From Mobula birostris (taxonomy: Eukaryota), in contig NC_092394.1 of NCBI RefSeq assembly GCF_030028105.1, positions 42,386,477-42,450,476 of the forward strand: a stretch of 64,000 nucleotides of DNA, read 5' to 3'. The notes under the pieces were generated by a model. That model did no database searches and was not told the origin of the DNA. It saw only the letters and a program-made list of their open reading frames with translations. Position 1 is the first letter of the stretch. Each line of letters opens with the position of its first letter. Both the position numbers and the translations under genes were made by a program. This document shows, piece after piece, positions 19,118-52,673 of the stretch.

Positions 19118-19253
19118 CTGTCCCGATGAAGGGTCTTGGCCCGAAACATCAATTGTTTACTCTTTTCCATAGACGCTGCCTGGTCTGCTGAGTTCCTCCA
19201 GCACTTTGTGTGCTGCTTGGATTTCCAGCAACTGCAGGCTTTCCTGTGTTGAG
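19118..19253 (+). mobile_element. Solo Penelope-like terminal repeat (136 bp) with hammerhead motif and 15-bp TSD
   Basis: Flanked by the exact direct repeat AATCAGTCACTGATA (19103-19117 and 19254-19268). Homologous to 27214-27345 and 49985-50140. Confidence 0.8.
19119..19155 (+). ncRNA. Degenerate minimal type I hammerhead ribozyme motif
   Basis: tgtc-CcGATGA-aGGGtcttggCCC-GAAAC-aTC-aatt: core CUGAUGA/GAAA with one substitution, and a GGG/CCC stem II. This copy is probably inactive. Confidence 0.6.
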
Positions 19254-26870: not shown

Positions 26871-27213
26871 CTTCAGAAAGAACCCTTGCTAGCTGCCTAG
26901 TTCTTATCCTTCGTACTCAAATCTAAACACCCAGTTTCAACTTATTGCCAAATGTTCCCTGTCAGTATCCTAATATTTCCAGCCTATTAATAGCCAATCA
27001 TAAACAGATACCTATTCCAACTTGAATAAGTAATATAGTTGTCCCCTCTCCTAGTCTCTGAGTTTATTCTTGCGATTTGGATATGTTCTATTTAATCAAC
27101 TATTTCACATGAATGGCACTAACTTAATTGGTTCAACTTCCTCGTCAGTCTGAACGTATTGGCATCAGGCTCATCCTCTTTGTTTTATCTGTCTCATTTA
27201 TTCTGGCCTTGCC

Positions 27214-27345
27214 TAGTCCTGCGAAGAGTCTCAGCCCAAAATGCCGACTGTACTCTTTTCCATAGTTGCTGCCTGGCCTGCTGAGTTCCTCCAGCATTTT
27301 GTGTGTGTTGCTTGGATTTCCAGCATCCTGAGATTTTCTCTTGTT
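27214..27345 (+). mobile_element. Penelope-like terminal repeat with degenerate hammerhead
   Basis: agtcctgcgaagagtctcagcccaaaatgccgactg..gctgcctggcctgctgagttcctccagcattttgtgtgtgttgcttggatttccagcatc is homologous to 19118-19253. Confidence 0.8.
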
Positions 27346-27359
27346 TTTGTCTCGAACCT

Positions 27360-27746
27360 TATCCTGTTGGGGAGGTGGCTTATCCTGCTTGTCGAAAACT
27401 GCTTCCATTGTGATTGGTTAGTTTAGAAACTACAGTTCCTCTTCCCATTGGTTGACTACTTAAGTGTCCAGTTTCAAATATCCTGGGTATAAAGAATAGC
27501 GCATGTGAACTTCTTTCTCTCTCCCTCTGACTAAGGCAAACTGTGCAAAACATTTGTGAAGGTATACTCTGCGTATGCTCATAACTATGTGCCCGGTTGT
27601 GGAATATTTAGTTCTGTAGTTGTGCGTCGTGGGGAAATTGAATGTTTGATCGACTTTTTTACTGTTTGTAAATAAATGATTAATATCCTTTTTTGCTGTC
27701 AGTTCTGTCTCACTCACTAAGCTTGCAAACCTGATTCAACAATATA
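27360..27746 (+). repeat. ERV 5' LTR
   Basis: Colinear with 30025-30400, roughly 80-85% identical by eye. TATA box gggtataaa at about 27487 and AATAAA at about 27671. Termini have decayed to TA..TA. Confidence 0.88.
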
Positions 27747-27749
27747 TTT

Positions 27750-27770
27750 TAGCACAGTGAGCAGGGTTTG
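27750..27770 (+). promoter_or_regulatory. Primer-binding site, tRNA-Ser type
   Basis: TAGCACAGTGAGCAGGGTTTG lies 3 nt after the 5' LTR. It matches 17/21 of the complement of the vertebrate tRNA-Ser(TGA) 3' end as I recall it (TGGCGCAGCGAGCAGGGTTCG). Three of the four mismatches are CpG-type transitions. Confidence 0.7.
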
Positions 27771-27829
27771 TTGTTTGAGCAGAAAATACATTTCTTTGAA
27801 AGTTTCTCGGGCTCATATAGGACACCACA

Positions 27830-28400
27830 TTGTGTCCGTGGTTAAAATGCTGGGTTTTCCCAGGAGAAAGGTTAGCTGACAGATACCAGCACAAATTGAT
27901 TATGGGTCTTAAGACTGAGGTGGAGGACCTAAATCAGCACAGTGTCATTCTGAGAGAATCACTGTTGATGGCCCAGACTCTGGATGCAAAATTAGAAGAT
28001 AAGAATATAGAGATAGCTTTTCAGTTAATGAAAGTACAGCAATTAGAGGCTGCCCGGTGAGTCAATTGGCAGCCTGATCCTGTTAAGGTTCAAGCTTCAA
28101 TGTGGTAGGGCAATGATCCTACTGTGTGGATGGGGATGGCTGGCTGGATGATGAAGCTGAGGGACAAAGGGTAGCATGGATTCCTGGGCTTAACCCAAGC
28201 AGAATGGAGCACAGTAGAGGGAGGGACTAAAGTTCTACACCAGTGGGCTCTTATCTCAGAATTATACAGCAATAGTGATAACCTACCAGAGGATGTTGAA
28301 TTACTTTTGGAATGATGGAACATGTGGTTATGTCAACAGCTTCCCAAACAAAGGGGGTAGTGCTATATTTAATAGCCCCAGCTGTTCTGTAAGTACAGTG
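27830..28400 (+). pseudogene. gag: Retroviral gag N-terminal remnant, ERV-L/class III-like
   Basis: The coiled-coil-like ORF 27830-28060 continues in frame past a stop as QPDPVKVQASMW*GNDPTV, then after a frameshift WDGDGWLDDE. Compare the ERV-L gag motif VKVRALIGKEWDPxTWDGDVWED. Confidence 0.6.
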
Positions 28401-28779
28401 AATAGAGTGTGAATGATTAGAATGCGGAGAAATATGTGAGGTGTGGCCACACATATCAGTTTGTTCTTTTGTGTGAGTACTTTGCCTTTAAGAGACTCCA
28501 GGTCCTTCTCAGTTGTTCTCTGATATGTGTGCTATTTCCCTGTGAGAAATTAACTGTCTGGTTTTAAATTTTGCAGTTCCATGTGAAGCTTTTAAAGAAG
28601 AGGAGTACAGCCCAGACTTTGTTTCTTGTGTATTTTTTTAGTCTGTTAATTAGTTTTTGTGTATTTTTAAAATCTGTTACGTGTTTATTGTGTCTTAATC
28701 TGTTTCTTGTGTTTTATTTGTTTCCAATGCAATTTGTTTAGGGATAACTCACATATCACGCTGGCCATGTGAGATTTGA

Positions 28780-29960
28780 GTTGATGGGGCAGAAATTTGG
28801 ACATAAGCATTGGCGAGCAATTCTAGAAGTTTTTGTTTTTGTGTTTTCAAAATACCCAGTGGTTAATCAGGAGTGAGTGCATTTGTATCTCCCTGCATTA
28901 CAGAGTGACAAAGTGCTGGATGTTGACTTGTGGGAGATCCTGTCATACATTTCTGGGGATGGTGTTCGAATTTGCACACCGGACCAATAAGTTAGATGGT
29001 TGAATTCATATGAGGGCTCCTTACTACATTGTGGAAGGGATACCACTAATATCGATCTCTTTTGATGACAGAGAACAAGACTGTTGGGGGAAATTATCTG
29101 GCTGCTTAGATTTTTGCACTCTGGTATTCGGGAAGCCAGAAGGGAGTAATCTATTCCAGCCAACCTCAGCCTAGAGTATGGTAACAGCTTTAAGGGACTT
29201 GGGCTTTAATACCCTTGGTGGAGCAAATATTTCAAGGGCTGGTACTTCCCTATGTACCGTTTGTTTAATTGGTAGGTCCTGACCTTTAAAGTGACCTCTC
29301 CACCTGAAAGAGTGTTGGTGTCAAGGTAGTATGATGAGCACAGGTACAAGGTGGATGGCGAGTGTGAGCAGGAAAGCCAGAACGGTATCCTGGATTAGTT
29401 GTGTCTATGCCAAGTGCTGTTGTGAAGGTGGGCATTTGCTGGACACTGAATGTCTCTTAATGGGTATGCAGTTCCTAGGCCTACCTGTGCTTCCCATAGG
29501 GTGGTGTAGTTGATATGTGGTGCCATACGTATACTACCCCTGTGCCCTGGATGAACACCTTGTCCATGCTGGTCGGCATAGTAGGGGCTATTACAAAGGA
29601 AGGAAGGTTTTAAATGATAGTCTTTCTCAACATGGTACAGCCAGACTGTCCCAGGAATTGATTTCAATGCCCTGAGATTACCTGCTCACAATGAAAGGTG
29701 GCACCTGTATTGTTAATGGTCAAGAATGCTGCTCATGTATTCCTGACTATTCGAGGAACATCGCTCACCATACCTGACAGTCAGTGTATCAGATTAGGTG
29801 GAGGACTAGTTCATTGGCTATTACACTCATAGGTGGGGCTGATTGCCTTTTGGGGTGCAGGGATGCTGGTGGGCTACAATAGTATACTGGGGGGGTGATT
29901 ATTAGGTTTATAGTACTGGGTATGGTAATTTTGTGTTTTATATATAATTTCGCAGTGAGT
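28780..29960 (+). pseudogene. env: Retroviral env remnant with gamma-type TM subunit
   Basis: 29676 onward reads DYLLTMKGGTCIVNGQECCSCIPDYSRNI (end of the ISD plus CX6CC). A WVCSS*AYLCFP SU C-terminal-like motif lies at about 29461, and a hydrophobic anchor GVIIRFIVLGMVILCFIY at about 29893-29950. Confidence 0.8.
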
Positions 29961-30024
29961 TCACAAGGATCATACTAGTCTGAGTTTCAGATCATCACAG
30001 TGTTGCAACTTTGGAGGGGTGAAG

Positions 30025-30400
30025 TGTCTTATGGGGGGTTGTGGCTTATTCTGCTTGTTGAAAGCTGCTCCTGTCATGATTGATTAGTTTAGAAACTGCA
30101 GCTGCTCTTCCCATTGGATGGCTACCTAAATATCCAGTTTCAAATATCCTGGGTATTATGCATAGCACACGTGGGAGCTTCTTTCTCTCTCCCTCTGTCT
30201 AAGGCATACTGTACAAAACCTTTAGGAAGGTATGCTCCACGAGTGCTCTTATTGAAGTGTCCGTTTGTTGGATATTTAGTTCTGTAGTTTGTGCAACTTG
30301 GGGAAAACTAAATGTTTGTAAATAAATGGTTAATATACTGATTTACAGTCCATATTTTCTGTCTCACTCACCAAACTTGCAAACCTGATTCAACGTTACA
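30025..30400 (+). repeat. ERV 3' LTR
   Basis: TG...CA termini, preceded by the PPT and followed by TSD AACCT. AATAAA at about 30321. Confidence 0.88.
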
Positions 30401-31049
30401 AACCTAGAGGCACAAACTAATATTTTTTGAGTTCTGCTAAAACAAAAATCTATGGTTAAAAAGTGTTATCCCATCATCTTTCTGTTCTTACATTGTTTCT
30501 TCCCTGTGTAGAACATATTGGACTGTTCTTGTTCAAAGAAGATCTCAGTGTTTTTGACCATACTTCTGCCAGCAAATCTGTAATTTAGCCAATATACCAG
30601 TGATCTGTATGTAATACTCTATTTCGTGTTGAATGAAAGTGGACAAAAACCAGTGTTTCATGGGGATGCATTTGTGTCATGTGGCATGAACAGTAGAGAG
30701 CACAAATTGATGTCTTGTGAGGGGGGTAATAAATTGATGTTGATTAGGGAATAAAAAGTATTATCACCTGATGGGTGTTCATGATTGGGCATAAACTAAT
30801 GACACAAAGTGAAGTTTGGTAAAATTCCTTTGGAAAAGTTATTTGATTATTTTACTCAGACTGTCCAGTATAAGATTCTAGATTTATGGTAATGTGCTTT
30901 ACTCTCAAATACTTTCCAAAATGGACTAATAAAACACTCAATTGTGTCAAACCAACATGTCCAAACAGCCTTGTGTGCTCATATTCAATTCCTCAAGTTG
31001 TCCTATTAGGATTGCTCACTACATATTGTCCCACATGCAAGAGATCTAT

Positions 31050-49984: not shown

Positions 49985-50140
49985 GTAATACAAGAGATTG
50001 TGCAGATGCTGGAGATTCAAAATTATACATGCACAATGCTGGAGGAACCCAGCACATCAGGCAAATTCTATGGAAAGGAATAGAGTCAATTCAAGTCCTA
50101 ATGAAGGGTCTCAGCCCAAAGTGTCGACTCTGTATTCCTC
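49985..50140. mobile_element. Penelope-like terminal repeats in inverted arrangement with a degenerate hammerhead (50093-50130)
   Basis: A reverse copy tgcagatgctggag..tgctggaggaacccagcac..tggaaaggaatagagtcaa is followed by a forward agtcctaatgaagggtctcagcccaaagtgtcgactc. Confidence 0.75.
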
Positions 50141-51074: not shown

Positions 51075-52673
51075 CAGTGGTATGCAAAAATCTGGGCACC
51101 CCGGTCAAAATTTCTGTTACTGTGAATAGCTAAGCGAGTAAAAGATGACCTGATTTTCAAAAGGCACAAAGTTAAAGATGACACATTTCTTTAATATTTT
51201 AAGCAAGATTAATTTTATTTCCATCTTTTACAGTTTCAAAATAACAAAAAAGGAAAAGGGCCTGATGCAAAAGTTTGGGCACCCTGCATGGTCAGTACTT
51301 AGTAACACCCCCTTTGGCAAGTATCACAGCTTGTAAACGCTTTCTGTAGCCAGCTAAGACCTTCTCAGTTCTTGTTTGAGGCACTTTTGCCCATTCTTCC
51401 TTACAAAAGGCTTCTAGTTCTGTCAAATTCTTGGGCCGCCTTGCATGCACTGCTCTTTTGAGGTCTATCCACAGATTTTCGATGATGTTTAGATCAGGGG
51501 ACTGTGAGGGCCATGGCAAAACCTTCACCTTGTACTTCTTGAGGTAGTTCATTGTAGAATTTGAGGTGTGTTTATGATTATTATCCTGTTGTAGAAGCCA
51601 TCCTCTTTTCATCTTCAGCTTTGTGATGTTTGCTTCCAGAATTTGCTGATATTTAATTGAATTCATTCTTGCCCCTACCAGTGAAATGTTCCCTGTGCCA
51701 CTGGCTGAAACACAAGCCCAAAGCATGATCGATCCACCCCAGTGCATAACAGTTGGAGAGGTGTTCTTTTCATGAAATTCTCCACCCTTTTTTCTCCAAC
51801 CATATCTTTGCTCATTGTGGCCAAAAAGTTCTATTTTAACTTCATCAGTCCACAGGACTTGTTTCCAAAATGCATCAGGCTTGTTTAGATGTTCCTTTTA
51901 AACTTCTGATGCTGAATTTTATGGTGAAGACGCAGGAAAGGTTTTCTTCTGATGACTCTTCCATGAAGGTCATATTTGTGCAGGTGTCGCTGCACAGTAG
52001 AACAGTGTACCACCACTCCAGACTCTGCTAAAGCTTCCTGAAGGTCTTTTGCAGTCAAACAGGGATTTTGATTTGCCTTTCTACCAATCCTATGAGCAGT
52101 TCTCTCTGAAAGTTTTCCAGACCTCAACTTGACCTCAACCATTCCTGTTAACTGCCATTTCTTAATTACATTACGAACTGAGGAAACGGCTACCTGAAAA
52201 CACTTTGTTATCTTCTTATAGCCTTCTCCTGTTTTGTGGGCATCATTTATTTTAATTTTCAGAGTGCTAGGCAGCTGTTTAGAGGAGCCCATGGCCGCTG
52301 ATTGTTGAGACAAGGTTTGAGGAGTCAGGGTATTTATAAAGCTTTGAAATTTGCATCACCTGGCCTTTCCTAACGATGAATGTGAACAAGCCATAGCCCT
52401 AGCAAGCTAATTAAGGTCTGAGACCTTGGTAATAGTTATCTGAGAGCTCAAATCTCTTGGGGTGCCCAAATCTTTGCAAGGGTGCTCCTTTCCTTTTTTG
52501 AACTCTAAAATTGTACAAAACAAAAATAATAAACTAATCTTGCTTAAAATGTTGAAAAGAATGTTTCATCTTTAACTTAATGACTTTTGGAGATCAGTTC
52601 ATCTTCTACTCTCTTAACTATTCACAGTAACAGAAGTTTTGACCAGGGGTGCCCAAACTTTTGCATACCACTG
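51075..52673 (-). mobile_element. Full-length Tc1 transposon (IR/DR type, DD34E), 1599 bp, TA TSD
   Basis: TA|CAGTGGTATGCAAAA...TTTTGCATACCACTG|TA. The ~210-bp TIRs (51075-51284 and 52460-52673) each carry two TGCAAAAGTTTGGGCACCC-like direct repeats. Confidence 0.95.
51292..52292 (-). pseudogene. Tc1 transposase pseudogene
   Basis: ORFs 51885-52313 (paired-like HTH) and 51292-51747 are bridged by VLWTDEVKIELFG in the intervening sequence, so there are two frameshifts. QDNN...SPDLNIIE gives D-34-E spacing. Confidence 0.93.

Follow-up and report, generated by a model that had tools for sequence, protein, structure and literature searches.

The window, the whole stretch of 64,000 nucleotides of Mobula birostris DNA that was analysed, carries a retrovirus-like element on its forward strand, with the following features (window positions):

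27355-27359, + strand: 5' target-site duplication (TSD), AACCT, an exact copy of the 3' TSD
27360-27746, + strand: 5' LTR, 387 bp, termini decayed relative to the TGT...ACA of most copies
27750-27767, + strand: primer-binding site (PBS) of tRNA-Ser(TGA) type, beginning 3 nt past the 5' LTR, 15/18 positions complementary
27770-28398, + strand: leader and broken class III gag remnant, approximate boundaries, three copy-specific deletions
28399-28860, + strand: T-rich spacer, approximate boundaries, occupying the pro-pol place of related elements
28860-29960, + strand: broken env remnant (SU and TM), its TM falling ~125 nt short of that of sister families
30013-30024, + strand: polypurine tract (PPT), directly before the 3' LTR
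30025-30400, + strand: 3' LTR, 376 bp
30401-30405, + strand: 3' TSD, AACCT

The architecture given in a preliminary description of this locus, with an LTR pair, an exact 5-bp TSD, a PBS 3 nt after the LTR and a PPT, was confirmed; the LTRs are identical at 299 of 366 aligned bases (82%, K2P 0.21). Serine priming, also proposed there, was corroborated by agreement of 13 of 15 PBS bases with the 3' end of a genomic tRNA-Ser(TGA) gene, plus 2 of the 3 bases for CCA, this being the one tRNA compared in all PBS matching. The gag motif quoted in that description lies at 28070-28150 and is interrupted by a stop and a frame change, the CX6CC motif of the TM was located at 29676-29732, and a hydrophobic membrane anchor near 29885-29945. 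Pfam searches of six frames of the window copy returned nothing meaningful, so that the profile search suggested as a check on its translation recovered neither a gag nor a TM family.

Compared with its relatives, the window copy has lost ~136 bp at ~27805, ~420-480 bp at 28190 (in the capsid region) and ~415 bp at 28398 (in the gag 3' end), about 1 kb in all and mostly gag, which makes the 3-kb size particular to this copy. As no family match in the genome DNA search spans the three deletion junctions, both its compactness and its gag stub are peculiar to it. The stub can thus no longer be regarded as a family trait, the family having had a full-length gag region, and the 2.3-kb interior originally described is true of the window copy (2278 bp) but not of the family, with its 3.3-kb interior. 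The gag part of the Hemitrygon gene model P0008 matches the window copy (E 5e-11); the Fv1-like proteins described below give no match there, as the corresponding region is deleted. The window copy is a decayed, long-dead and further-deleted copy of an old retrovirus-like family, and no host function is suggested for it.

Elsewhere in the window, a short repeat just upstream of the element (27191-27350) has two further copies at 19128-19230 and 50005-50087 and presumably resembles a shark/ray SINE tail. The minus strand at 51295-51897 holds a 201-aa open frame, which we take to resemble a Tc1/mariner transposase.

Extent and backbone of the family

The non-autonomous family to which the window element belongs is referred to as family A. 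A DNA search of the animal's own 4.0-Gb genome, in which 40 of 1898 first-look candidates were scored, yielded at least 39 other loci with main matches of 68-77% identity. A search with the LTR alone gave 1314 candidates, a figure that is not a copy number; the copy number is suggested to be in the hundreds or more. Two LTRs are present in 24 of the 39 other loci, with a few pairings (L009, L030) that may join separate insertions. In an all-against-all comparison, most other copies cover almost end to end a common interior of 3.3-3.4 kb, giving a backbone of ~4.1 kb with the order LTR-PBS-gag-T-rich spacer-env-PPT-LTR. Long copies were considered as pol-bearing forms and rejected, their extra DNA consisting of unshared insertions.

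Most copies have LTRs with TGT...ACA termini. Flanks of 5 bp match best (mean identity 0.58, vs 0.28 for 4 bp and 0.21 for 6 bp); the 5-bp TSD is exact in 4 of 20 placed copies and has at most one mismatch in 7 of the 20, with 6 of 26 copies not placed. At least 12 of 15 PBS bases match tRNA-Ser(TGA) in 12 of 25 copies. Divergence between paired LTRs ranges from 0.13 to 0.24 with a median of 0.197 (22 of 26 pairs, those with at least 200 aligned bases), and the env tree is star-like, its terminal branches summing to 4.79 vs 0.33 for internal ones, which points to one old burst. The copies are separate integrations radiating from one source. At a K of 0.2, the rates of 2.2e-9 and 2.2e-10 quoted in the available text of PMC4422223 translate into ~45 to 450 million years, a range too wide for dating.

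For the detection of pol, queries for protease, reverse transcriptase (RT), RNase H and integrase (IN) were taken from sister elements and database relatives and run against 46 family A loci, comprising the 39 above, 6 selected by gag and not by env similarity, and the window element. No sense-strand tblastn match was obtained in any of the 46; one locus carries an antisense pol match within an unrelated insertion. Pfam scans of four backbone copies likewise gave no pol domain in any of them and no relevant family. The place of pro-pol is taken by the T-rich spacer of ~570 bp (~40% T in sister copies), which is present in 42 of the 46 loci, was found outside family A only in the pol-less element L046, and showed no similarity to the pol-bearing loci found. 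Similarity between family A and its closest pol-bearing sisters ends at the end of gag and restarts at the point that lies directly after the integrase in the sisters.

An autonomous family whose members lost pol independently after insertion could in principle leave such copies, given that private deletions do occur in single copies, three of them in the window copy, and that partial deletion is frequent in the pol-bearing sisters. The absence of pol from 46/46 loci, the same spacer in 42 of them and a TM deletion that is also common to them speak against this; a single junction common to the copies contradicts independent losses, and we regard them as extremely unlikely. Both the shared junction and the lack of pol throughout indicate that the pol-less form was itself copied. 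Of the two readings left open by the preliminary description, a non-autonomous family is hence upheld over a one-off loss of pol, and the gag-env junction that it had proposed to look for in other copies was encountered as the same spacer junction in 42/46 loci.

Five more elements with gag and env and no pol matches (L045, L046, L049, L052, L058) have LTRs or interiors partly like those of family A and are possibly separate non-autonomous subfamilies.

Pol-bearing relatives and class assignment

Pol-bearing relatives were reached by searching the genome with gag protein, 150 of 787 candidates being scored, and RTs were collected in an RT-based search (150 of 3035 first-look candidates scored). 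RVT_1, RNase H and rve domains were found in the resulting sister families, whose env is homologous to that of family A and, in families B and C, directly follows IN. Family B (L040, L043, L044, L080 and others) has the order gag-pro-RT-RNase H-IN-env, a Ser-type primer site and a PPT end as in family A. Family C (L048, L050, L051, L094-L112, L063) is nearer to A: the gag tree groups family A with the pol-bearing L048, L050 and L051 (support 94), and env DNA is 64-86% identical to that of A in local matches.

The preliminary description had called for pol-bearing partners with the same LTR and primer site; sister families with a Ser primer site do exist, but none was found that has the family A LTR. 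Apart from short patches, this LTR is absent from 27 RT-selected 10-kb loci and from 20 pol-selected loci with 1.5-kb flanks, and no helper was found among them. Family B is doubtful in this role, its LTR lacking similarity to that of family A and its member L044 being far younger (LTR K2P 0.04 vs a family A median of 0.20). L063 was considered as a parent of family A and set aside, its LTR similarity being patchy only.

The window family is very probably a class III endogenous retrovirus family. Its 5-bp TSD and TGT...ACA termini are class III features, and the claim of a class III-type gag was borne out by P0123, a Narcine protein named 'Friend virus susceptibility protein 1-like' by automatic annotation, which matches 18 of 25 family A interiors (best E 4e-24; MuERV-L and Fv1 sequences themselves were not compared directly). 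P0272, from the same cluster, matches 21 of the 25. Pfam gave no match for family A gag, and in a word-index search of longer proteins with a piece of this gag none of 374 candidates scored.

The sisters point the same way. Family B has a YIDD catalytic motif, an IN zinc finger of the form HX4HX28CX2C in L043, and spacings of D-E 35 and D-D 57 in L044; the signatures listed for XtERV-S/ERV-L are YIDD, HX4HX28CX2C and DX58DX35E (PMC8278194, Table 2, in the part of the paper available). In the databases it comes closest to stingray proteins (70-71%), followed by those of amphibians and lungfish, several with dUTPase; this order points to a batoid host and agrees with the cartilaginous fish proposed in the preliminary description. 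In a quick tree, built without named reference viruses, the RTs of B and C fall together (support 99) with proteins of amphibians, lungfish and birds, several of them dUTPase-bearing, while YVDD-type and Gypsy-like RTs of the same genome lie outside this group. Downstream of IN, the scanned frames of L044 and L040 gave no dUTPase match.

A class I (epsilon/gamma) or Gypsy-derived element that only resembles class III would account for the gamma-type TM (TLV_coat), and in searches of solved structures with the sister RT the best matches were MLV/XMRV-type RTs, which outscore foamy RTs, with no ERV-L RT among the matches. The grouping of the sister RTs, an Fv1-like protein among the gag relatives, and the 5-bp TSD, TGT...ACA ends and IN zinc-finger spacing, all of which fit class III, make such a derivation very unlikely.

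Several further observations were made on this material. L044 (G000:C38:11618118-11628117, minus strand) is a family B provirus, broken but nearly full-length, with LTRs of 650 bp (K2P 0.04), a Ser-type PBS, gag-pro-pol-env and two inserted repeats; a CWIC-type SU motif was seen in family B. L081-L085 and L065 form another, younger class III-like RT family (LTR K2P of L083, 0.05), whose numerous near-identical copies cluster on contigs C17 and C24; many matches lie on C17, C24 and C38. At G000:C6:35.5-36.3 Mb (L086), ~25 near-identical, evenly spaced RT matches suggest an ERV within a large tandem duplication. The RTs of L087-L092, with long open frames of up to 871 aa, fall outside the class III group and are probably epsilon-like or Gypsy; L087 has YVDD. 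The Hemitrygon gene models P0124, P0274 and P0008, which fuse gag, env or pol pieces of this ERV lineage with other annotations ('zinc-binding protein A33-like' or non-viral Pfam domains), are probably annotation chimeras.

The envelope remnant

A gamma-type TM had been claimed from the CX6CC motif in the window, and the assignment is substantiated by the family B TM, which at 30.9 bits exceeds the TLV_coat cut-off of 22.5 bits. The TM of the family A copy L008 stays below this cut-off (E 0.032), and two other family A copies gave no match. Measured against the sister element L097, the TM segment is shorter in all 33 scored family A copies (of 42), by 89-159 nt overall and by 124 or 125 nt in 22 of them. 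Seven of the 9 other scored loci of families B and C are within 26 nt of the L097 length, the exceptions being L048 (108 nt short) and L100 (93 nt longer). By comparison of translations, the family A TM lacks the N-heptad together with the beginning of the immunosuppressive domain. A class I fusion protein whose TM lacks the N-heptad cannot form the six-helix bundle, which implies that the family A env was not fusogenic. What had been described as an envelope is thus a gamma-type env remnant, as stated, but with its shared TM deletion (33/33) not a working envelope.

A search for an intact env relative returned one match in 271 candidates, a 992-aa Hemitrygon model with non-env Pfam families, which was not used, and a search of solved structures with an off-frame env stretch returned nothing.

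Origin, mobilisation and significance

We consider it highly probable that family A is a non-autonomous class III family mobilised in trans, that it arose from a C-like element by replacement of pro-pol with the spacer, and that its env was non-fusogenic. The source would go back to a Ser-primed class III retrovirus with an env, similar to the local family C, in which the T-rich spacer took the place of pro-pol. The RNA of this source would have retained the cis signals (LTR, PBS, PPT), while a pol-bearing class III relative active at the same time may have provided protease, RT and integrase in trans; Gag was possibly still made by the source element. As the env would have been unable to fuse membranes, the element is expected to have spread either by retrotransposition within the cell or in the particles of a helper.

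Instead of being a pure parasite, the source could have been a co-operating defective virus that expressed, under selection, a functional Gag together with a shortened membrane protein derived from Env, for instance a non-fusogenic receptor-binding protein. The env region is retained at nearly full length, single copies hold long open frames (gag, 226 aa in L012; TM, 159 aa in L009), and two of four gag stretches have a slight excess of third-position variation (permutation p of 0.012 and 0.034, against 0.18 and 0.19 for the remaining two). However, this signal in gag is a weak one, not corrected for multiple testing and missing in transversions, CpG decay can mimic it, and three env stretches show no third-position excess (p 0.33-0.53), in a test to which the star-like tree leaves little power. 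We regard this reading as rather improbable.

A broader scenario, which we would put a little lower still and offer as speculation, is that a class III, Ser-primed, env-bearing radiation in batoids gave rise more than once to pol-less satellites, among them family A and perhaps the five further pol-less elements listed above, in parallel to MaLR. Family A may then be a rare case of a replicated satellite with gag and a non-fusogenic env, whose Gag and possibly truncated Env were functional during amplification.

Each ingredient of the trans-mobilised class III family preferred here has precedent, both the combination of class III, Ser primer and gamma-type TM and the existence of non-autonomous class III elements. 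According to the available text on XtERV-S of Xenopus tropicalis, this intact and recent element has class III gag/pol, a tRNA-Ser(AGA/TGA) PBS, TGT...ACA ends, a 5-bp TSD, a class I-like TM with CX6CC and a dUTPase, and 19 internally deleted copies retain the PBS, 5' gag and PPT (PMC8278194). The preliminary description had drawn attention to a class III element with a Ser PBS and a class I-type TM; this combination is present but already described. In these portions of the account, family A is like XtERV-S in its class III gag, Ser PBS, 5-bp TSD, TGT...ACA termini and gamma-type TM; unlike it, family A is old, lacks pro-pol, and retains the whole gag region and most of env with the common TM deletion, and family B showed no dUTPase following IN.

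In the accessible part of a bioRxiv study, ERV-SA.a-Ppe and 'Class III SnRV-related' ERVs combine a class III Pol with a class I gamma-type Env, and such Env were found in 6 cartilaginous fish (10.1101/2021.11.23.469661). ERV-SA.a-Ppe, as presented there, is pol-bearing, unlike family A. Its host may be the sawfish Pristis pectinata, in which case families B and C could be close to it. The supplements of 10.1101/2021.11.23.469661 may list this lineage. CmiERV lineage I of the elephant shark, an env-bearing ERV clustering with snakehead retrovirus in the available text of PMC4422223, differs from family A in being a complete provirus.

Among non-autonomous elements, the MaLR of class III are described as having expanded with the help of autonomous ERVs (PMC5538554, available part). 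Family A works like MaLR as so described but is not one, having an env remnant and a host that is not mammalian. MaLR interiors are not known to carry an env. Defective ERVs that replicated non-autonomously, with large internal deletions or an interior replaced by non-homologous sequence, include ERV-MER41E and RecKoRV (PMC11905727), and deer mouse mysTR derivatives are likewise replicated defective ERVs (PMC10089650); as far as the available text of both papers goes, these are class I or II and mammalian, unlike family A. No description of family A was found in the literature searched, largely papers outside subscription, and judged on that literature the family seems undescribed.

Family A would mean that non-autonomous class III retroelements were amplified outside mammals too. 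ERVs in this host lineage have mostly been mined by pol searches, which are blind to families of this kind. The presence of several env-bearing class III families in a ray bears on the question of whether the env-less ERV-L had enveloped forebears, and the paired LTRs, being old, could be of use in estimating neutral rates and as orthologous markers in batoid phylogeny.
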